Shown here piece after piece: positions 597-54,661 of a DNA stretch of 64,000 bases (positions are counted from its first letter, which is position 1; every line of letters starts with the position of its first letter). Under the pieces are notes generated by a model, which was not told the origin of the DNA, did not search any database, and worked only from the letters and a program-made list of their open reading frames with translations. The stretch comes from a virus. Taxonomy: Duplodnaviria; Heunggongvirae; Uroviricota; Caudoviricetes. A program made the position numbers and the translations under genes. The stretch lies in IMG/VR virus record IMGVR_UViG_3300042006_000024. The stretch is one strand, 5' to 3'.

Positions 597-1565
597 ATGG
601 CTTCTTTCAAAGAACATACAGCGAACATCTTGCAAAATGGCCTGGCGCGTACTAACCGATTCCAGGTACTCATTCCTACACCTATGATGCGCAATGATGC
701 TATTGGTGATGAATCGAGTGATGAGTTCGTAGGGCCTAAACCACCTGTCTCCAAACTCAAAGCGTTGTTTGGTGAAGCAGTCAAAGTGATTCGTATCTTC
801 ACTGGTGGTGGTTCTGCTGAATACACCCGTGGTCTTGATTTGATGTGTTCACAGACTGAACTTCCTGGCAAGACGATCAACACGTCCGAGACCAAGTATA
901 ACGGTGACGTACACAAGATTGGTCAGTCATTGATGTACGGCAACCAGCAGTTCACCTTTCATGTGTCACAGGACATGTATGAAAAGACCATCATCGATCA
1001 GTGGATGAATATGGTCGTTGATCCTGAAACGCATGAAGTTAGTTATCTGACCGACTATGCGGTAACGATCAACGTGTTCCAGCTTGATCAGAACGACAAG
1101 ATTGTCCATGCAATCGCGCTGATTGACGCATTCCCAGTCATGATGAACCCACTGACATTGTCGAACAGTGAGCATAACAACGTGCACGAATTGATGGTTC
1201 AGTTTGCCTATCGTCGTTGGATTAACCTTGATCTCTCAGCAGACCCTGAGAACAGCATGGACAGTCTACTTGATACACCACTAGGTCCGTACCTTGCGCC
1301 GATCTTGTCGAACCCTGTGGTACAGCGTGGTCTTGAATATGTGAAGAATACAACCGGCCTCGATCTGCAAGGCGAAGCATTGAACATATATAAGCAGGTA
1401 GACGACATCGTCAAAAATACAACTGGTGAATCGATTAACAAATCTGTTGGTCTGATGAACTCAATCAAAGCCTCACTTGATGTCAACGATAAAATCACCC
1501 AAGCCGATGCAGGCAAGTTGTTTGATTTCGTTGAAGGTGCAGTGCAGAAATTTAAACCAAACTAG
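597..1565 (+). CDS. hypothetical protein (322 aa)
   Basis: Long ORF with an ATG start. Wins over the antisense ORFs it overlaps by length and gene packing. Confidence 0.6.
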   Translation: MASFKEHTANILQNGLARTNRFQVLIPTPMMRNDAIGDESSDEFVGPKPPVSKLKALFGEAVKVIRIFTGGGSAEYTRGLDLMCSQTELPGKTINTSETKYNGDVHKIGQSLMYGNQQFTFHVSQDMYEKTIIDQWMNMVVDPETHEVSYLTDYAVTINVFQLDQNDKIVHAIALIDAFPVMMNPLTLSNSEHNNVHELMVQFAYRRWINLDLSADPENSMDSLLDTPLGPYLAPILSNPVVQRGLEYVKNTTGLDLQGEALNIYKQVDDIVKNTTGESINKSVGLMNSIKASLDVNDKITQADAGKLFDFVEGAVQKFKPN

Positions 1566-1578
1566 GTGAAGACACACT

Positions 1579-2292
1579 ATGGCACTTCCTAAGATCCAAC
1601 ACACGCTGTACTCTCACACTTTGGTAGGCTTGGGTAAGCAAATCAAGTTTCGCCCATTCACTAACCAAGAGCAAAAGACCTTGCTGTTGGCTAAAGACGC
1701 CAAGGGTACCGCTGATGAGAAAGAGGCAGTGGTCAATGCTATTGAGCAGATTGTAGGTAACTGCACCCTGGGTAAGATTGATGGTTCGTCTCTGTCGACA
1801 TTCGACATTGAAGACTTGTTCCTGCGCATTCGTGCCAAGTCTGTGGGTGAAGTGATCAACGTTCAATACCGCTATGACTTCCGTGATGCTGAAGACCGTC
1901 CACAAAGTCGATTCATCAAGGCTGCGATTAACGTTGACGACATCAAAGTTAAGGTCGATCCTGAGCATACCAAAGTCATTATGGTCAGCGACAAGATCGG
2001 TATGACCATGCGTTACCCGACCTTCAAGATGCTCAAAGACATCGCCAGCGAAGATGACTTGCCACTTGAATGCATCGACACCATTTTCGATGAAAGTGAA
2101 ATTCATGACCGTAACTCGGTCACGCGTGAAGAGCTTGTAGCGTTCTATGACGACATCGATACCGCAGGTCTGCTGAAGATCAAAAAGTTCTTTGACACAA
2201 TGCCTTCTCTCCAACACACCATCGAACTTGATGTCGGTGACGGTAAGACAGAAACCGTGACATTCAAAGGGCTCAACGATTTTTTTATCTAA
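1579..2292 (+). CDS. hypothetical protein (237 aa)
   Basis: ORF starts 14 nt after the upstream stop, same strand. Confidence 0.6.
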   Translation: MALPKIQHTLYSHTLVGLGKQIKFRPFTNQEQKTLLLAKDAKGTADEKEAVVNAIEQIVGNCTLGKIDGSSLSTFDIEDLFLRIRAKSVGEVINVQYRYDFRDAEDRPQSRFIKAAINVDDIKVKVDPEHTKVIMVSDKIGMTMRYPTFKMLKDIASEDDLPLECIDTIFDESEIHDRNSVTREELVAFYDDIDTAGLLKIKKFFDTMPSLQHTIELDVGDGKTETVTFKGLNDFFI

Positions 2293-2294
2293 CG

Positions 2295-2474
2295 ATGACG
2301 CATGAAAGTTTGGAGTCGTATTACACAAATAACTTTCATGTACTATTCCATCGAGATATTGGTTTCGAAAACCACTTCAGGTTGTCCGATCTCGACGGGA
2401 TGTTACCTTGGGAACGCGAGATTTACATGATGCTCATGAATCAAAAAATGGAACAGTACAAAAACGCCAAATAA
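2295..2474 (+). CDS. small hypothetical ORF (59 aa)
   Basis: ATG 3 nt after the upstream stop. Falls below the ORF-track size cutoff. Weak. Confidence 0.2.
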   Translation: MTHESLESYYTNNFHVLFHRDIGFENHFRLSDLDGMLPWEREIYMMLMNQKMEQYKNAK

Positions 2475-11723: not shown

Positions 11724-12544
11724 TCCTTCAGGTCAGGGTGTTTGTGTTTGTTGTCAAGCATGAGTTCGATTTCACGCGCTTTGTAACTGATTTCTTCTTT
11801 GGAGAAGGTCGACTCACGGTAATCGTGATAGCGCTGCCATGCACGCATCATTTCATACATCGGTGTGTTGTAGTCAATCTCAGATATGCCAACCCCAAGC
11901 GACTTTGCTACAGCCAAGCGAACACCGAGGGCTGATAGATTGACACCTTCGAGATCCTCGCTGTAGAGTTTCGGATCGATCAACGCACCGACAGCACACA
12001 TGCAACCATCAGAGGTGCGATACTGACACGAACCGTGTTCACCGGCTGCTTGCTTGCCTTGCTTGAGCAAGTGGTCAGCAATATAGCCTGAAACTTGTTT
12101 GATATGACGCTTGGTGATTTCACCGGTCATGTCGTACCGTTCGCGAGTTTTCAGGTGCTCATGCATTGTCGATGGAGAGTCTGGACTACCGGCGTCTGCA
12201 CCTTCTTGAATCCAACGCCCGTAATTAATGCGGAATACAGGTTCACCGTCTTCGTACTGCGCGTATGCGGAATCGTGGTAGTTCTGCCAAGCTTTCAACA
12301 ATGCGAGTGTGTCCACATCGAGCTTCATTTTCAGCGACAAGCCAACGGCGGTGATGATCTCTTCGCGCCCCATAGCCTTGCCTTCAAGTTCAGGGCTGTA
12401 GACTTCATCGGGGATCAAACAACCGACGGCACACATGTTACCGTTGATGTTGCTATACTTACATGTACCATTGTTAGTTTCGCTTTTCGCCTTCTGTTTG
12501 ATCAGATGGTCACGGATCTTTTCGGAGATTTGCAGGAGAGTCAT
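11720..12544 (-). CDS. protein with tandem duplication of a Cys-motif domain (family copies 1 and 2)
   Basis: Two ~135-aa repeats, each with HLIKQ, C.YR and MCAVGCLI motifs. Confidence 0.6.
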   Translation of the reverse strand: MTLLQISEKIRDHLIKQKAKSETNNGTCKYSNINGNMCAVGCLIPDEVYSPELEGKAMGREEIITAVGLSLKMKLDVDTLALLKAWQNYHDSAYAQYEDGEPVFRINYGRWIQEGADAGSPDSPSTMHEHLKTRERYDMTGEITKRHIKQVSGYIADHLLKQGKQAAGEHGSCQYRTSDGCMCAVGALIDPKLYSEDLEGVNLSALGVRLAVAKSLGVGISEIDYNTPMYEMMRAWQRYHDYRESTFSKEEISYKAREIELMLDNKHKHPDLKD

Positions 12545-12945
12545 ACGGTCAGTTCCTTGAGAATCATATCGTGGAAGTGGGTAGGGCTGTTTGGCTCATC
12601 GCTCGGCTTATTAACCCAGTCAGTGTAGCGATAGGTTTTAGTCGACAGCACGTCGCAACTTTCATAAAACGAATCGTGATACGACTGCCATGCGCGAAAC
12701 AGTTGAGACGCTGTTTCATCAACCAACACGCCAGACAGTTTGAGCGCATCAGTGATAGACGGGTCGTCTGCCATCTTACCTTCAAGGTCAGGGTCATATG
12801 CATCATCATTGATGAGGCAACCGACTGCACACATCAAGCCTGCCTCACTGCGGTATTTGCAACTACCATGATCGCTTACGCTTTTGCTACGTTGTTTGAT
12901 CAGATGGTCACGGATTGTTTCGGACAACTGTACAAGAGTTTTCAT
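12541..12945 (-). CDS. Cys-motif domain protein (family copy 3)
   Basis: 134 aa. IRDHLIKQ...CKYR...MCAVGCLI...WQSYHD. Confidence 0.6.
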   Translation of the reverse strand: MKTLVQLSETIRDHLIKQRSKSVSDHGSCKYRSEAGLMCAVGCLINDDAYDPDLEGKMADDPSITDALKLSGVLVDETASQLFRAWQSYHDSFYESCDVLSTKTYRYTDWVNKPSDEPNSPTHFHDMILKELTV

Positions 12946-17306: not shown

Positions 17307-17367
17307 ACTTCACTCCTAATAATATATAAGCCCAACGCAATAGTGCGTCAGGCTATTATACATGTGA

Positions 17368-18456
17368 TTAGAAGTCAGTATCAAGCTCAGTTTCATCAAC
17401 GTTCATATCAACTTGGCCGGTTTGATACTGAAGGATAGTGTCTTCCTGTGGTGCAGGTTGATCATCATCACCAGTTTCATTCAGGAACTTGCGCATCCAA
17501 GGGATAGGCTCTTTAACCGGAACGGTGAAGTTTGGCTCAACACCATTACGGCGCATGCACTTACCTACATGGTATTGCAAGTAAACGATCAGCTCTTGTT
17601 CAGTCAGACCGACAATCGGGCCTTTGCTGAACAGATACTTGATCCACTCAAGTTCTTGACGATAGACAGCATACAGGATTGCTTCGGCATCAGCCTGACA
17701 TTCAATCGCGATCTTCGCCATATCAGGGTCTTCTTTCGGACTCTGACGCAGGACAAACTGAGTGAAACCACAGTGGAACGCTTCGTCTTGACGGATCAGT
17801 GTAACGATCTCACCAGAACCCTTCATCTTACCACGGTTGGCAAACGAGAAGGTGCAAGCGAAACTTACATGGAAACGAATCTGCTCAAGGGCGTTGACTG
17901 CAACCATGCACAGGTAGAACGCTTTCTTGGTGCGATAGTCGCCGTAGTCGTATTCTTTGATGCACCGCAGGAGTTCGTCATAGTACTTGCTGATGTCGTC
18001 AGAACACTCGGCGATCTCACGGATCTCCTTCATCGTGTCATAGATTTCAGAGGCGTTGGCGTAGACGTTCTCAATGATATGCGTGTAGCTGCTCGAATGG
18101 ATGCCCTCGTAGAAGTTCCATGCGTTGATGAATGCCTCTGCCCATGAGTCAGACACAATCGGCAAGAAACACAGTGCAGGGGCACGGCCTTGAACGCTGT
18201 CGAGGATGATTTGACGCTTCAGGTTCGATGAGAAAACATGCTTCTCAGCTTCGGTGAAGTCGTTGTAGTCAATCTTGTCTTGAGACATGTTGACTTCAGT
18301 TGGTCGCCAGTAGTTGGCCAACTGGTTTTCAGTCAGACGTTTAACCATCGGATACTTGACGACGTCATAGCGCTGAATGTCAACAGTGCCAGCCTCATCG
18401 AAAAACATCTTAGGCTTGTAAGTACCGTTTACATCACGGAAGTATAGAACAGACAT
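17368..18456 (-). CDS. nrdB: ribonucleotide reductase class Ia beta subunit
   Basis: 362 aa with ferritin-like di-iron motifs (EAFHCGF...). Confidence 0.9.
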   Translation of the reverse strand: MSVLYFRDVNGTYKPKMFFDEAGTVDIQRYDVVKYPMVKRLTENQLANYWRPTEVNMSQDKIDYNDFTEAEKHVFSSNLKRQIILDSVQGRAPALCFLPIVSDSWAEAFINAWNFYEGIHSSSYTHIIENVYANASEIYDTMKEIREIAECSDDISKYYDELLRCIKEYDYGDYRTKKAFYLCMVAVNALEQIRFHVSFACTFSFANRGKMKGSGEIVTLIRQDEAFHCGFTQFVLRQSPKEDPDMAKIAIECQADAEAILYAVYRQELEWIKYLFSKGPIVGLTEQELIVYLQYHVGKCMRRNGVEPNFTVPVKEPIPWMRKFLNETGDDDQPAPQEDTILQYQTGQVDMNVDETELDTDF

Positions 18457-32679: not shown

Positions 32680-32907
32680 TCAGGAATTATCAGTTGTAAA
32701 GCACTTTTGACGCTTATAAGAACCCTTACCTTTCTTAGGGCTCTCAGTCTTACTACGGAACAAAGGTGATGTAACAAGTGCACCAACTGCACTGTGTTTG
32801 ATATCACCTCGTTGATGATCGTGACTCATGATTACCTCTAATCGATGAACATTGTAAACAGTGAAAGAAGTTCCACTATCAACATCAGCGGTTCCCACTT
32901 CTTCCAC
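32680..32907 (-). CDS. small hypothetical protein
   Basis: ORF only. Overlaps the next ORF call. Confidence 0.25.
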   Translation of the reverse strand: MEEVGTADVDSGTSFTVYNVHRLEVIMSHDHQRGDIKHSAVGALVTSPLFRSKTESPKKGKGSYKRQKCFTTDNS

Positions 32908-33790: not shown

Positions 33791-34312
33791 TCACGCGATT
33801 TGCGGTTGGAGTTCATTTGCAACAATTTCCTGGATAGATAGAAGTTCAACGTTGAGCAACTTGCAAGTGTTTACTTGCTTAGGGAGTTGACCAGCTGGTG
33901 TACGATAATACACCTCATTATATATGATTCGCTTGACTGGTGCTTCTGGTGTTGTCAGAGCGAGCATATGTTTCAGGCAATTGTTACATGGGCAGTGCGT
34001 TGAGTAAAACGTTACCTCGTTGTACTTCACCGTCGAACGTGCCATCTCAATGATGGTGTTCATCTCACCATGAATCTCATGCTCTTCAGACCATGCAGAG
34101 TGTTCAGGGCCACGCTCTTTGTGCACGTCACAGCAGTTAGGAGCGCCCGATGGCGTCCCGTTGACCCCTGTAGCGATGATGCGACCACGTTCATTGACTG
34201 CAAGTACACCGACTTGCATCGACACGCACTTAGACAACAGTGCGAGGTCAAGTGCCATGTTCATGAAGACCTGATGCTTATTCATTATATTGGTTTGTTC
34301 CAACTGATCCAT
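33791..34312 (-). CDS. dCMP deaminase
   Basis: Zinc-binding HGEMN...CPCNNC cytidine/deoxycytidylate deaminase motifs. Confidence 0.8.
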   Translation of the reverse strand: MDQLEQTNIMNKHQVFMNMALDLALLSKCVSMQVGVLAVNERGRIIATGVNGTPSGAPNCCDVHKERGPEHSAWSEEHEIHGEMNTIIEMARSTVKYNEVTFYSTHCPCNNCLKHMLALTTPEAPVKRIIYNEVYYRTPAGQLPKQVNTCKLLNVELLSIQEIVANELQPQIA

Positions 34313-34530
34313 GCGATTGTTTGTTTAGCGATGCTGTCCGCGTATTTCTTATCGAGATACGCAAGGGCTGCTGCGTCTGAATCGGTCCAAATGATCTCAC
34401 CTTGGCGTTCCTTCCATGTAGTACCAGCCCAGCCTAAGCTATTCTCATGCCTATAGTGGCGCCACCAGAACAACCACTTGTACTGTGGATAATACAGGCC
34501 GTCCCTTGTCATTTTCACGCGCTGTTTCAT
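34285..34530 (-). CDS. small WYYP-motif protein, paralogue 1 of 3
   Basis: KMTRDGLYYPQYKWLFWWRHY. Confidence 0.5.
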   Translation of the reverse strand: MKQRVKMTRDGLYYPQYKWLFWWRHYRHENSLGWAGTTWKERQGEIIWTDSDAAALAYLDKKYADSIAKQTIAWISWNKPI

Positions 34531-34766
34531 GATTGCACATACTCGATGATTTTGGCGTTCTTGGATTTTTTGATGTTACGGATATCCTCTTCGTGTACGT
34601 CGTGCAGGAACGACATTGCAGCATCTTGCGTTGAATACCTGACGACGGCGCATTCATCAAAAATCCAGCCCTGCTTGTCATAATGACACCAGAAGAACAT
34701 ACACCTGTACTGTGGGTAGTACCAACCATCTTGTGCTAGACGAACGCGTTTCTTTGTCGGTTTCAT
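34527..34766 (-). CDS. small WYYP-motif protein, paralogue 2 of 3
   Basis: RVRLAQDGWYYPQYRCMFFWCHY. Confidence 0.5.
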   Translation of the reverse strand: MKPTKKRVRLAQDGWYYPQYRCMFFWCHYDKQGWIFDECAVVRYSTQDAAMSFLHDVHEEDIRNIKKSKNAKIIEYVQS

Positions 34767-34978
34767 TCTTCAGGTTTCCATGTGAACACTTCGATGGCCT
34801 GGGCTTTGTGGATCTGATGCAACTCCCTGGCGTGCTGTTTATCTAGGAAATTGCGTGCGTTGTCAAGCGTACGGAAGCATTTGTCTATGCCGTACGGTAC
34901 CCAGAAGAACAGCATCTTGCGTTCAGGGTAGTAAAATCCATCAGCATATCGCTTGATACGCTTTTGTTTTGGTTGCAT
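34763..34978 (-). CDS. small WYYP-motif protein, paralogue 3 of 3
   Basis: RIKRYADGFYYPERKMLFFWVPY. Confidence 0.5.
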   Translation of the reverse strand: MQPKQKRIKRYADGFYYPERKMLFFWVPYGIDKCFRTLDNARNFLDKQHARELHQIHKAQAIEVFTWKPEE

Positions 34979-35025
34979 CTCACATCACTCCAGGGTTGGC
35001 CTAAAAGCATCACGAATCGTTGGAT

Positions 35026-35092
35026 ACGAATTATACAGTGGATTGCATGCCTGTATAATAGTATTTTTAAATCAATTGAATCTGAATAATAG
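35026..35092. repeat. repeat unit R1: ATTATACAG-N11-CTGTATAAT palindrome plus TTTTTAAAT..TGAAT tail
   Basis: Read directly. Gives TGTATAAT extended -10-like hexamers on both strands. Confidence 0.6.
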
Positions 35093-35123
35093 TTAAATTC
35101 TTTCAGGTCTGGATCGTTCAGGA

Positions 35124-35190
35124 ACGAATTATACAGTCAAAATTTGATCTGTATAATAGTATTTTTAAATTGAATAAGATTGAATGATAG
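35124..35190. repeat. repeat unit R2 (second copy of R1)
   Basis: Same arms and spacer length, 98 bp downstream of R1. Confidence 0.6.
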
Positions 35191-35271
35191 ATAAAACCAT
35201 TTACTGGGTTTGACTCGTGCTGAATCGATCAATAAATAATCTGAATAGAACTCATAACAGATAATAGTCAT

Positions 35272-35721
35272 ATGGCTAGGAATTATAAGCAAGGGGTTTT
35301 CAAGCCCAAGAATCCTTCGAAGTACATTGGTGATCCTACTAAGGTTGTGTTCCGATCCGGTTGGGAAAATAAGCTGATGCGCAAACTCGATGAAAGTTCA
35401 ACCATCATTGGCTGGAATTCCGAGGACGTGGTAATTCCATATATCAGTCCTGTAGATGGTCGCGCTCATCGCTACTTTGTAGACTTCCTCGTTGTGGCTA
35501 AAGGTCCTACAGGTGAGAAGATTATCACCCTGATTGAAGTCAAACCTTATGCCCAAACATTACAACCAACAATGACTGCAAAGAAGACCAAAGAGCGCTT
35601 CATGACTGAGATTGCGACCTATGCAGTCAATCAGGCTAAGTGGGCCGCTGCTGAGGCATATTGCGTCAAACGTGGTTGGAAATTCACAGTACTCACAGAA
35701 AACGATATCAACTTCGTTTAA
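35272..35721 (+). CDS. T4 gp4-like head completion family protein (tentative)
   Basis: N-terminal FKPKNPSKYIGD...FRSGWE recalls the T4 gp4/gp50/gp65 family from memory. Sits just before the baseplate hub genes, as in T4. Confidence 0.35.
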   Translation: MARNYKQGVFKPKNPSKYIGDPTKVVFRSGWENKLMRKLDESSTIIGWNSEDVVIPYISPVDGRAHRYFVDFLVVAKGPTGEKIITLIEVKPYAQTLQPTMTAKKTKERFMTEIATYAVNQAKWAAAEAYCVKRGWKFTVLTENDINFV

Positions 35722-48534: not shown

Positions 48535-48546
48535 TCGCAAGCCAAT

Positions 48547-48576
48547 AAAAAGCCCAGTTAATTCTGGGCTTTTTGC
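48547..48576. terminator. bidirectional intrinsic terminator
   Basis: agcccag-ttaatt-ctgggct flanked by a T-run on both strands. Sits between convergent genes. Confidence 0.6.
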
Positions 48577-48579
48577 TTA

Positions 48580-50117: not shown

Positions 50118-50160
50118 GATGAGTGCTCCGAGTGATGACGATGGTGTAGCTCATGAGTCG

Positions 50161-50189
50161 ATTATGGCTCAATCACTACACCTTGTCAA
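50161..50189 (-). promoter_or_regulatory. sigma70 promoter TTGACA-17-CATAAT with conserved CGACTCATGAG leader
   Basis: Minus strand: -35 at 50184-50189, -10 at 50161-50166. Confidence 0.5.
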
Positions 50190-50193
50190 CACC

Positions 50194-50867: not shown

Positions 50868-51269
50868 TTACTCAGCATTCTCGAACAGTGCAGCAGGTGA
50901 CAGGCCGTAGTTTATGGCAATACGTTGCATGTTCTCCAATACCTGTTCGATCAGCTGGTTACTGTCATGTGCGTTCTGAAGTGTTTGAATCAGATTTTGG
51001 TGCGCGTTTGGTGCGTAGCCTTCTTTGACAATTTCGAGCCATCCCATTCCTTCTGACGGATCGAAGATAGCCAAGTACTCATCGTCTGCAATCAAACAAC
51101 CTGCGGCACACATAGTCCCACCAGTGCCACGATATGCGCAAGTGCCGGTGGTGATACCACTATCCTCTTCTTTCATCGAACGCTTACCTTGCTTGACCAG
51201 ATGACGTGCAACCTGATCGAACACTTGTTGCGCTGTTGCATCTTTCAATGTAGCCAGTGTGATAGTCAT
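50868..51269 (-). CDS. Cys-motif domain protein (family copy 4)
   Basis: VARHLVKQGK...CAYR...MCAAGCLIADDEY...LQNAHD. Confidence 0.6.
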   Translation of the reverse strand: MTITLATLKDATAQQVFDQVARHLVKQGKRSMKEEDSGITTGTCAYRGTGGTMCAAGCLIADDEYLAIFDPSEGMGWLEIVKEGYAPNAHQNLIQTLQNAHDSNQLIEQVLENMQRIAINYGLSPAALFENAE

Positions 51270-51295
51270 ACTTTTCTTCCTTCGAAATGGGTTGG

Positions 51296-51769
51296 TTAGA
51301 CGACAGCGCCGAAGCGGTCGAAGTGTTCAAGCGCGAGATCGAGGTACATCATCCACGCTGCACGAATGGTGAGTTTCTTGTAGCGGTAATCACAGAAGCC
51401 TTCTTTTTCATGTGGCTGCCAGGTGCTGAAATCAACAGTGCCTTCATGGTAAACGAGAACTGATGCCGCACGCTTTTCAAAGCGTGCGTTCACTTCTACA
51501 AGTGGAAAACCAGCGGGTACAGGCGTGTGGGTCCAGATGTTAACCTCAGTCTTAGGTGCAGTGCGACTATCCCAAATGATTGGATCATCAGCGTTAACAA
51601 CACCGTCACGGATGAGGATATATTCAACATCGTATTGACTGCGATCTTTCAGCTCTTGCATTGCGAAGTCAATCGCTTTCTGAACACCACCCAACCATTT
51701 ACAAAACACGAATGTCTGCTTAGGGTTGCGTGTGGCTATTGCAAAGGTATAACCGATAGGCTTGCTCAT
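51296..51769 (-). CDS. hypothetical protein (157 aa)
   Basis: ORF. Confidence 0.5.
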   Translation of the reverse strand: MSKPIGYTFAIATRNPKQTFVFCKWLGGVQKAIDFAMQELKDRSQYDVEYILIRDGVVNADDPIIWDSRTAPKTEVNIWTHTPVPAGFPLVEVNARFEKRAASVLVYHEGTVDFSTWQPHEKEGFCDYRYKKLTIRAAWMMYLDLALEHFDRFGAVV

Positions 51770-51963
51770 GCTTGTTCCTTAGGAATGGTGTGACCGATTT
51801 TCAAACGTGAGCCCAGCCAGTAATGCTTTTCCATGCGCTGAAGATCATTGATGCTGATGGTCGACATTTCTTTCCAATGCTTGAGTGCATACGCCTCAAG
51901 CTCGTTTTCAGGAAAGAGGGTGATGATACCATCACCCGTCATTTCAGCTCGCATTGAAAGCAT
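51766..51963 (-). CDS. hypothetical protein (65 aa)
   Basis: ORF with an ATGA overlap. Confidence 0.4.
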   Translation of the reverse strand: MLSMRAEMTGDGIITLFPENELEAYALKHWKEMSTISINDLQRMEKHYWLGSRLKIGHTIPKEQA

Positions 51964-52330
51964 CCAGGTTGAGTTCGTAGGTAGTGCCTACTTCTTTCAT
52001 CTTCACAAGGACGCTTTCAATGAGACCAGACCGATCGTGTGCGCGTTGCAGAGCGATGATCAAGTTTTGGTGGTGCTCAGGAACAGTCTGATTGGATACT
52101 AATCGATCCCAAGTACCGCCACCGTTTCCAGCGCCATTGTCGAATTGTGGCAGATATTCATCATCAGCGATGAGGCAACCTGCCGCACACATCAAGCCAT
52201 TGACACCACGGTAGAGGCACATTTGTGAACCAGGATTGACCGAACGCTTACCTTGTTTGATCATATGCGTGACAACCTGGTCAAACACTTGTTGAGCGGT
52301 TGCATCTTTCAGGGTGGCCAAAGTAATCAT
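51944..52330 (-). CDS. Cys-motif domain protein (family copy 5)
   Basis: N-terminal 18 aa almost identical to copy 4. CLYR...MCAAGCLIADDEY. Confidence 0.6.
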   Translation of the reverse strand: MITLATLKDATAQQVFDQVVTHMIKQGKRSVNPGSQMCLYRGVNGLMCAAGCLIADDEYLPQFDNGAGNGGGTWDRLVSNQTVPEHHQNLIIALQRAHDRSGLIESVLVKMKEVGTTYELNLDAFNAS

Positions 52331-52737
52331 TTCGAAAGCTCTTCCAGGTTGAATTGAAGTTTGTGTTTCTTGGCGAAGTGTTTGAGACGACGAGGGTAGT
52401 CAATTGCACCCACTTCATCAATGTCCCAGCGGTCTACGTTCATGTCATGCATCTTCTGGAGCATGTCGATGAAGTACGCATGCTTACTCGGGACTTGCTC
52501 AGGGAACGCCTCAGAGCAAGACAACCAGCTGCCGCGTTTGTCGAACTTGATGTCGTACTCTTCATCGGTCATGAGACAGCCTGCCGCACACATCAGACCA
52601 TTACCTGGACGGTACTGACACATACCTGCGTCGTTCGTGGCGCGGACTTTCTGTTTGATCAAGTGACGAGCCACCTGATCGAAGATCTGCTGTTCGGTTG
52701 CGTCTTTCAAATTTGCGAGTGTGATTTGCATGATCAT
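52327..52737 (-). CDS. Cys-motif domain protein (family copy 6)
   Basis: VARHLIKQK...CQYR...MCAAGCLMTDEEY...LQKMHD. Confidence 0.6.
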   Translation of the reverse strand: MIMQITLANLKDATEQQIFDQVARHLIKQKVRATNDAGMCQYRPGNGLMCAAGCLMTDEEYDIKFDKRGSWLSCSEAFPEQVPSKHAYFIDMLQKMHDMNVDRWDIDEVGAIDYPRRLKHFAKKHKLQFNLEELSK

Positions 52738-54588: not shown

Positions 54589-54629
54589 GACTGATGCTCC
54601 GAATAATGTATTTGTTAACTCATGAGTCG

Positions 54630-54658
54630 ATTATGGTGCAGTCGACTCACACTGTCAA
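54630..54658 (-). promoter_or_regulatory. sigma70 promoter TTGACA-17-CATAAT with conserved CGACTCATGAG leader
   Basis: Minus strand: -35 at 54653-54658, -10 at 54630-54635. Paralogous to the promoter at 50161-50189. Confidence 0.5.
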
Positions 54659-54661
54659 CCA

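Follow-up and report, generated by a model that had tools for sequence, protein, structure and literature searches.

The early promoters of phage T4, known as "uber" promoters, are read by the host sigma-70 polymerase and are built of an UP element, a -35 hexamer, a TGn motif and a -10 hexamer (UP/-35/TGn/-10; Hinton 2010, PMC2988021). UP elements are A/T-rich sequences located at -40 to -60, and the extended -10 motif is T(-15)G(-14)n(-13) (PMC2988021). Bacterial bidirectional promoters (Warman, Grainger; PMC12825309) are pseudo-symmetric sites between divergent genes that accommodate the polymerase in two orientations. They possess one shared -10 and divergent starts separated by 10, 18 or 23 bp, and for the strong ones of E. 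coli it has been shown experimentally that one binding event excludes the other (PMC12825309). The locus described here is to be compared with both classes. It is found in a 64,000-nucleotide stretch of viral DNA (IMG/VR record IMGVR_UViG_3300042006_000024, Caudoviricetes; "the window" hereafter) and consists of two tandem palindromic units in the 293-bp gap (34979-35271) between a minus-strand open reading frame (ORF) ending at 34978 and a divergent plus-strand gp4-like gene beginning at 35272. The units are best explained, with a probability that we put at roughly 0.6, as tandem back-to-back sigma-70-type early promoters that the host RNA polymerase, in unmodified form, would use chiefly for the leftward block of genes.

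Each unit is an inverted repeat with perfect 9-bp arms, and the two units are 98 bp apart from start to start (Table 1). The earlier note, a reading of the sequence made before this analysis, had placed two tandem palindromic units at this distance in the divergent gap, a placement that is confirmed. It had also given the repeat an 11-nt spacer; the perfect repeat stands, but its spacer is of 12 nt. The arms and flanks are identical between units 1 and 2: the identity extends over 14 nt at the left (ACGAATTATACAGT) and over 22 nt at the right (CTGTATAATAGTATTTTTAAAT), followed by a looser TGAAT-rich tail, and the shared right-hand tail that had been reported (AGTATTTTTAAAT ... TGAAT(A/G)ATAG) is found as described. 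In contrast, the spacers agree at only 2 of their 12 positions, so that they do not stem from a recent duplication, and arms that are kept while the spacers diverge indicate long-term selection on the arms. When up to three mismatches are tolerated, the full pattern occurs at these two places only in 64 kb (shuffle expectation 0.02; two or more occurrences in 0 of 100 shuffles), and the relaxed core TATACAG-N12-CTGTATA is likewise confined to this locus. The element is real, conserved and non-random.

Read as promoters, the units have a compact design. Each one carries TATACA-16 nt-TATAAT on both strands, a match of 10/12 to the sigma-70 consensus, and each arm also supplies the -35-like TATACA for the opposite -10. 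All four -10 hexamers, one per strand and unit, are perfect (6/6), including the A at position 2 and the T at position 6. The -35 matches at 4/6 positions and, with its 16-nt spacer, falls within the -35/-10 class, in which 16-18 nt separate the hexamers, although it is weaker than the TTGACA of other candidates in the window. In unit 1, the minus-strand -10 (35030-35035) overlaps the plus-strand -35 (35032-35037) by four bases. A scan of both strands of the window (128 kb) returns 23 sites with at least 10/12 matches to the consensus, four of which are those of the units; most of the remaining ones are located in intergenic gaps 5' of minus-strand genes and possess a TTGACA-like -35. The TATACA-N16-TATAAT arrangement is found only at this locus in 64 kb. 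A further TGTATAAT preceded by a TTGATA -35, pointed out previously near 17348-17380, is indeed present on the minus strand near 17355, where it forms another strong promoter candidate, TTGATA-18-TATAAT (11/12), with the same 10-mer, TGTATAATAG, as -10 region. Two other candidates were dismissed: further rightward promoters based on the TTGAAT words lack a -10 at a suitable distance, and TTGACT-17-TAAATA (35210-35238) was discarded as a sigma-70 promoter for want of the T at -7. The "phage-specific promoter" consensus of pf16 (PMC5587285) is absent from the window, and no TGCTT is present at the units, TGCTT being the core of the MotA box, which in T4 middle promoters is centred at -30 and recurs many times per genome.

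Table 1. Features of the divergent gap and of its two bordering genes (positions in the window; PL, leftward; PR, rightward; promoters and starts are predictions)
Feature	Position	Strand	Remarks
Unit 1 inverted repeat, ATTATACAG-N12-CTGTATAAT	35030..35059		arms 100% complementary; DNA hairpin only -7.2 kcal/mol
Unit 2 inverted repeat, ATTATACAG-N12-CTGTATAAT	35128..35157		spacer matches that of unit 1 at 2/12 bases
PL1 promoter	35030..35057	-	-35 TATACA 35057-35052, 16-nt spacer, -10 TATAAT 35035-35030; predicted start ~35023
PR1 promoter	35032..35059	+	-35 TATACA 35032-35037, 16-nt spacer, -10 TATAAT 35054-35059; predicted start ~35066
PL2 promoter	35128..35155	-	hexamers as PL1; predicted start ~35121; transcript would traverse unit 1
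PR2 promoter	35130..35157	+	hexamers as PR1; predicted start ~35164, 108 nt 5' of gp4 ATG
A/T tract AGTATTTTTAAAT, unit 1	35060..35072	-	minus strand ATTTAAAAATACT, directly 5' of PL1 -35
A/T tract AGTATTTTTAAAT, unit 2	35158..35170	-	same tract as unit 1
Conserved box ATCGTTGGATACGA, unit 1	35016..35029	-	would open the PL1 transcript (first ~15 nt, TCGTATCCAACGAT); short inverted repeat TCGT/ACGA
Conserved box ATCGTTCAGGAACGA, unit 2	35113..35127	-	counterpart of the unit 1 box
Unit 1 tail	35073..35097	+	two same-orientation TGAAT words and TGAATAATAG; conserved in relatives
Unit 2 tail (TGAATAAGATTGAATGATAGATAAA)	35171..35195	+	conserved in relatives
Late-promoter-like box AATAAATA	35231..35238	+	33 nt 5' of gp4 ATG; separate from the palindromes
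Leftward block gene 1	34763..34978	-	71 amino acids, first of three tandem paralogues; GGAG 9 nt 5' of ATG
gp4-like head completion gene	35272..35721	+	PHROG 218 "head closure", E 1.5e-55; opens the baseplate block

The comparison across related phages, proposed in the earlier note, finds the hexamers conserved. Relatives were gathered from IMG/VR, from one metagenome scan, and through a protein search with subsequent contig look-ups (gp4 73-100% identical), the scan contributing a single informative contig, L088. The units could be aligned as 15 copies from nine contigs (gp4 77-100% identical), which amount to about seven distinct lineages since L004 is near-identical to the window and L006 to L181. 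Leftward, the -35 TATACA is present in 15/15 copies, and the -10 reads TATAAT in 12 and TATACT in three. Rightward, the -10 TATAAT is again found in all 15, whereas the -35 varies (TATACA, TATACT, TATATC, TATAGC). The spacer between hexamers is free in sequence and 16 or 17 nt in length, the longer form belonging to L088 and L184, in which the arms stand one base further apart. The second units of L189 and L191 have their left arm changed to ATTATATCT and ATTATAGCT, respectively, with the inner three bases replaced; the right arm is fixed throughout. Perfect 9-bp symmetry is consequently a property of some lineages only; where it is lost, the leftward -35 and -10 are kept, and no change in the arms is compensatory. 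Among viral contigs, the exact palindrome is restricted to this phage lineage and to two unrelated longer hairpins. Fixed hexamers, a free spacer, a tolerance of 16 or 17 nt and an asymmetric decay of the palindrome together make up the signature of a promoter. The predicted leftward promoter is strictly conserved and is, on this alignment, the function kept by evolution. The full TGTATAAT is invariant as well, including its last two bases outside the leftward -35, which suggests selection on the rightward -10.

Two insertions were encountered among these relatives. In L006, a gene for a 260-residue NUMOD3 homing-endonuclease-like protein (1626-2408, minus strand) is located between unit 2 and gp4, and in L187 a NUMOD3 homing-endonuclease-like ORF (1537-2232, plus strand) is located between the gp48 and gp53 homologues.

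On its gene order and protein matches, the window is an uncultured pf16-like T4-type phage of the Pseudomonas type. Its nearest cultured relative is Pseudomonas phage pf16 (Chakrabartyvirus), with a gp48 76% identical at the protein level. The gene order parallels pf16 coordinates 100-148 kb, and the baseplate block is syntenic with pf16 gp204-208. At the nucleotide level, no match was found in 50,697 phage records, either by megablast with 3 kb around the site or by blastn with the 293-bp gap. To the right of the gap, the gp4-like gene is followed by homologues of gp48, gp53 and gp5, which are T4-type virion genes. To the left, the minus strand carries three small paralogues, a dCMP deaminase, ArfA and further genes; this block matches the nucleotide-metabolism and replication genes of pf16, which belong to the early/middle class in T4. 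By these matches, the gap is the divergence point of a ~30-kb minus-strand nucleotide-metabolism and replication block and of the plus-strand baseplate block, and the location formerly assigned to the site, between an early and a baseplate block, is correct.

In the mechanism that we favor, the host RNA polymerase, still unmodified, would read the units as infection begins. Whichever the strand, one arm would serve as -35-like TATACA and the other, 16 nt away, as perfect -10. A single polymerase would occupy each unit at a time, facing left or right, because each -10 overlaps the -35 of the opposite direction. The leftward pair, together with the A-tract at UP position, would start the early block on the minus strand, from the three paralogues through dCMP deaminase and ArfA onward. 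The predicted PL1 start is ~45 nt 5' of the ATG at 34978, in front of a gene with a GGAG ribosome-binding site. The rightward pair would fire too, without being the main promoter of gp4 and the baseplate genes; such two-way initiation is plausible, and rightward firing is probable because the rightward TATAAT is invariant.

The sequences flanking the arms fit the leftward promoters. Relative to these, the A/T tract occupies about -38 to -50, in agreement with the UP/-35/-10 build of T4 early promoters, and all aligned unit copies have an A-tract of 3-5 A, the arm-adjacent AGTA(T/A)TTT being conserved in sequence. The tract may act as an UP-like element for the leftward promoter, or it may provide the first transcribed bases and the unwinding region of PR1. 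On the other side, 3' of the leftward -10, TCGT(a/t)(t/c)CC..AACGAT is present in all aligned unit copies and pf16 has ATCGTTCAAGAAC at the same place. This box, ATCGTT-N4-5-ACGA, is conserved clade-wide, pf16 included; it could form a 5' stem-loop of the early transcript or be a second protein site. As to the tails, six TGAAT words are found on the plus strand within 170 nt (35077-35246) and 0 on the minus strand, for a total of 109 on the plus strand in 64 kb. They are irregularly spaced (6, 88, 10, 40 and 21 nt) and include the conserved TGAATAATAG and TGAATGATAG boxes.

The baseplate block has a candidate late signal of its own. T4 late promoters have the consensus TATAAATA (PMC5587285), of which A at -13 is the commonest variant (PMC2988020). 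This box stands at -10, and a -35 element is lacking. No TATAAATA-type box is found within the units. The box in front of gp4 (Table 1) has similar xTAAATA counterparts 5' of other plus-strand late genes of the window (AGTAAATAG twice, GCTAAATAA), and in every relative examined gp4 is preceded by a late-type box (CTAAATA, TTAAATA or ATAAATA). Since the baseplate genes possess their own late-type box, the palindromes are not needed to explain expression of this block. The NUMOD3 gene between unit 2 and gp4 in L006 makes rightward read-through into gp4 dispensable in that phage. The paired bidirectional promoters put forward in the earlier note are favored by the conserved hexamers, the free spacer, the four sites out of 23 and the position of unit 1, ~45 nt 5' of a leftward gene with a GGAG site; the extended -10 is not upheld. 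TGTATAAT had been taken as an extended -10, but the sequence reads C-T-G-TATAAT, placing TG at -14/-13, directly abutting the hexamer, and the scan scores the TG as absent.

In pf16 and in two pf16-like contigs (L185 and L190), there is no palindrome. Even so, a conventional leftward TTTAC(G/T)-17-TATAAT is found at the homologous place, adjoining the same ATCGTTC..GAAC box, and is duplicated ~48 nt away, which speaks for the promoter reading. A rightward TTGATG-18-TAGTAT overlaps this leftward promoter in all three. The deposited pf16 record lists only plus-strand "putative sigma70 promoter elements" in this region.

Several observations weigh against the units being promoters of this kind. 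For an extended -10, the TG is displaced by one base, and TATACA, with 4/6 matches, differs from the TTGACA of the other candidate early promoters of the window. As TATACA is invariant despite this weak match, a constraint other than sigma region 4 may act on it. No gene is available for the rightward transcripts before gp4, and in L006 they would run head-on into the inserted endonuclease gene. Moreover, the relatives are few and phylogenetically close. Finally, TATACA is enriched in the pf16 gap (L167 33570-33805, corresponding to pf16 133569-133804), which holds four of the ten copies in 48 kb (P about 0.0006, composition-matched shuffle). There, pf16 carries a TATACA-N15-TGTATA inverted pair in which both flanking -10s are crippled, a pair that is lost in L190. 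The enrichment and the crippled pair hint at recognition of TATACA by something else.

Among known systems, the T4 early promoters resemble the favored tandem promoters. Both would use host sigma-70 in front of T4-type early genes and combine a perfect TATAAT with A/T-rich DNA at UP position, the copies being in tandem for strength. The units differ by their -35, which matches at 4/6 positions and is of neither the T4 nor the TTGACA type, by the TG one base off, and by the presence of a mirror-image partner; their early timing is a prediction. The likeness to the bacterial bidirectional promoters resides in the pseudo-symmetry, the two polymerase orientations and the location between divergent genes, and the overlap of the two promoters within a unit leads one to expect mutual exclusion, as in the E. 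coli class (PMC12825309). However, the units do not belong to the class with one shared -10: they possess two, 35030-35035 and 35054-35059 in unit 1, with 18 bp between them, and the predicted starts are ~43 bp apart. Furthermore, each -10 overlaps the -35 of its partner and not the partner's -10, an arrangement that we take to be the older type of "back-to-back overlapping divergent promoters". The PeSL cassettes of T4-like phages are likewise repeated short cassettes, associating a sigma-70-like early promoter with a hairpin (PMC2839356, PMC4122927). They occur, however, as many dispersed copies in hyperplastic regions or flanking variable ORFs, and have a separate, G/C-containing, terminator-like stem-loop (PMC2839356, PMC4122927), whereas the present units are two copies at one locus, in which the "stem" is the promoter hexamers themselves.

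Read as tandem promoters, the units add no new kind of system; they are useful for the annotation of pf16-like phages, and their interdigitated symmetry is modestly notable. If the promoter reading is correct, this is the site where the host RNA polymerase first engages uncultured pf16-like phages, and it would allow an annotation superior to the plus-strand-only "sigma70 promoter" features of the pf16 deposit. The units would also be a compact natural case in which the -10 of one promoter is the -35 of the other, a possible test case for how polymerases compete at symmetric promoters, and possibly a small bidirectional part for Pseudomonas engineering.

Among the rival explanations, the one that survives best, although we regard it as unlikely, is that of a replication origin of the T4 oriF/oriG type. 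Rightward transcripts would form R-loops in the A/T-rich DNA (35060-35100 and 35158-35200), and their RNA would prime the leading strand. The units would still be promoters, but on the plus strand they would serve priming in place of gene expression. The minimal oriF and oriG of T4 are ~100 bp long and consist of a promoter with, downstream, an A+T-rich unwinding element whose sequence is not fixed (PMC3016281). T4 oriE depends on an early promoter, and the origins oriE, oriF and oriG occur at switches of transcription direction and nucleotide skew (PMC3016281). The present locus resembles oriF(uvsY) and oriG(34) (Kreuzer and Brister 2010, PMC3016281) in being a ~100-bp module with a promoter followed by the most easily melted DNA, here 85% A+T, and in its location at such a switch: the cumulative GC-skew minimum of the window, as well as the change of direction, is at the gap. 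The gap is also the least stable duplex of the 64 kb at the 40-, 60-, 100- and 200-bp scales. At 200 bp, the minimum of -228 kcal/mol is reached at 35053, the next site being at -250, and the three least stable 40-bp windows of the 64 kb are all found here, the least stable starting at 35153 and the second at 35055. The homologous region of pf16, which cannot be aligned, is similarly the least stable in 48 kb (-231 vs -259); as this instability is shared without alignable sequence, it is a physical property that is conserved and not a sequence. An origin role would, in addition, give a purpose to the rightward promoters, which have no gene of their own.

These features are nonetheless necessary for an origin of this type rather than specific to it, because any divergent promoter region with UP elements should also show a low duplex stability and a switch of skew. 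The arm-adjacent AGTA(T/A)TTT is conserved in sequence, which suits a protein contact better than a sequence-free unwinding element. Besides, oriF and oriG use MotA-dependent middle promoters and were defined by replication assays, whereas the units are of host type, are known from sequence, and give no sign of MotA dependence. About as unlikely is a fuller version, drawn by analogy with T4, in which the units would be the early origin of pf16-type phages, each a host-type promoter fused to an unwinding element, and the leftward mirror promoter would couple origin firing to early expression; what plausibility it has comes from the extreme duplex instability that this phage shares with pf16. 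Were the origin reading true, it would matter more than the promoter reading; to our knowledge, T4 itself is the only member of this large phage group with a defined origin.

The earlier note had envisaged an origin in another form, as an iteron or a packaging-related repeat. The promoter-plus-unwinding-element form is the one retained above. The iteron form finds no support: iteron origins display at least three evenly spaced direct repeats of ~12-22 bp, and the locus has two long units only, 98 bp apart and with no copy elsewhere in the 64 kb, along with irregularly spaced TGAAT words. T4-type phages package their DNA by headful, and a packaging signal was rejected for want of any support.

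Ranking behind the origin, and also improbable, is an operator for a dimeric phage or host protein, one of the roles suggested at the outset. Its 9-bp half-sites would be 21 bp apart from centre to centre, on one helix face, and the 98 bp between units would allow cooperative binding or looping; the dimer could shut off or switch the divergent promoters that its half-sites overlap. In its favor, the inverted arms are perfect over 9 bp in both units of the window lineage, even at the positions that the hexamers do not cover; the word TATACA is locally enriched at this site as in pf16; and pf16 retains its TATACA-N15-TGTATA in spite of two crippled -10s. Just 3' of the leftward -10, a second small palindrome (TCGTT..AACGA) is conserved as well. 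The comparison with relatives, however, contradicts this role. The left arm has lost its inner bases in the second units of L189 and L191 while the right arm is fixed, an asymmetric decay that a directional promoter would show but a protein with two-fold symmetry would not. In L088 and L184 the arms have moved apart by 1 bp, and the pf16-like L190 is devoid of the pf16 pair. As for host proteins, the exact pattern has 13 scattered matches in 185,579 bacterial and archaeal genomes and 0 in Pseudomonas, which is about chance; such taxonomically scattered, chance-level matches are not those of a known host regulon box, and a host operator is therefore rejected. The site could not be linked to any DNA-binding protein. 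The gene immediately downstream has no family match, and the structure predicted for its product was unusable.

Known host boxes do not fit the units either. The LexA (SOS) box has the words CTGTAT and ATACAG in common with them, but it reads CTGT-N8-ACAG whereas the units have the reversed order, ACAG-N12-CTGT, and where CTGT and ACAG do face each other, between the units, 68 nt separate them; it was rejected. The ArgR (TGAAT..ATTCA), Fur and IHF boxes were rejected for misfits of orientation or spacing.

A structure-forming element, either a cruciform or an RNA hairpin acting as a processing, stabilising or termination signal in a read-through transcript, is very improbable: the DNA hairpins fold better than shuffled controls (z about -3.5) and the PL2 transcript would include the unit 1 hairpin, but the stems are weak (-7 to -8 kcal/mol), A/T-rich, closed by a 12-nt loop and not followed by a U-tract, and the arm changes among relatives are non-compensatory. 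For the gp4 leader and the leftward leaders alike, RNA folding does not surpass that of shuffles, on which ground ribosome-binding-site sequestration and riboswitch-type ideas were rejected, and a search of Rfam returned sub-threshold snoRNA noise only.

Other features of the window deserve a mention. The three tandem paralogues at the head of the leftward block (34285-34978, minus strand; 81, 79 and 71 residues) possess a basic N-terminus and a DGxYYP..K.LFFW motif and are without Pfam family; for the first gene of the block, no PHROG family was matched either. Their copy number is 1-3 across relatives. A structure prediction of the first leftward protein, built from the three paralogues, gave a pLDDT of 50 and is unusable. 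The ArfA homologue, an alternative ribosome-rescue factor, is encoded at 32680-32907 on the minus strand (PF03889, E 5e-20), and the same gene is called in L181 and L185. The gp4-like protein (35272-35721) shows a match to the N-terminal domain of TnsA-like endonuclease (PF08722, E 6e-20) and a weak one to phage endonuclease I. About six paralogous small genes form two clusters ~38 kb apart (11963-12945 and 51075-52737), with repeat families D1-D4 at 62-83% DNA identity. A 44-nt direct repeat (50147-50190 and 54616-54659) spans a strong candidate early promoter, TTGACA-17-CATAAT (11/12), and its leader; the two copies of this promoter cassette are located upstream of two different minus-strand genes. 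Finally, at the convergent junction between the plus-strand tail-gene block and the next minus-strand block, a G/C-rich hairpin flanked by A and T runs (48535-48579; AAAAAGCCCAG..CTGGGCTTTTT) looks like a bidirectional terminator, as described for pf16.

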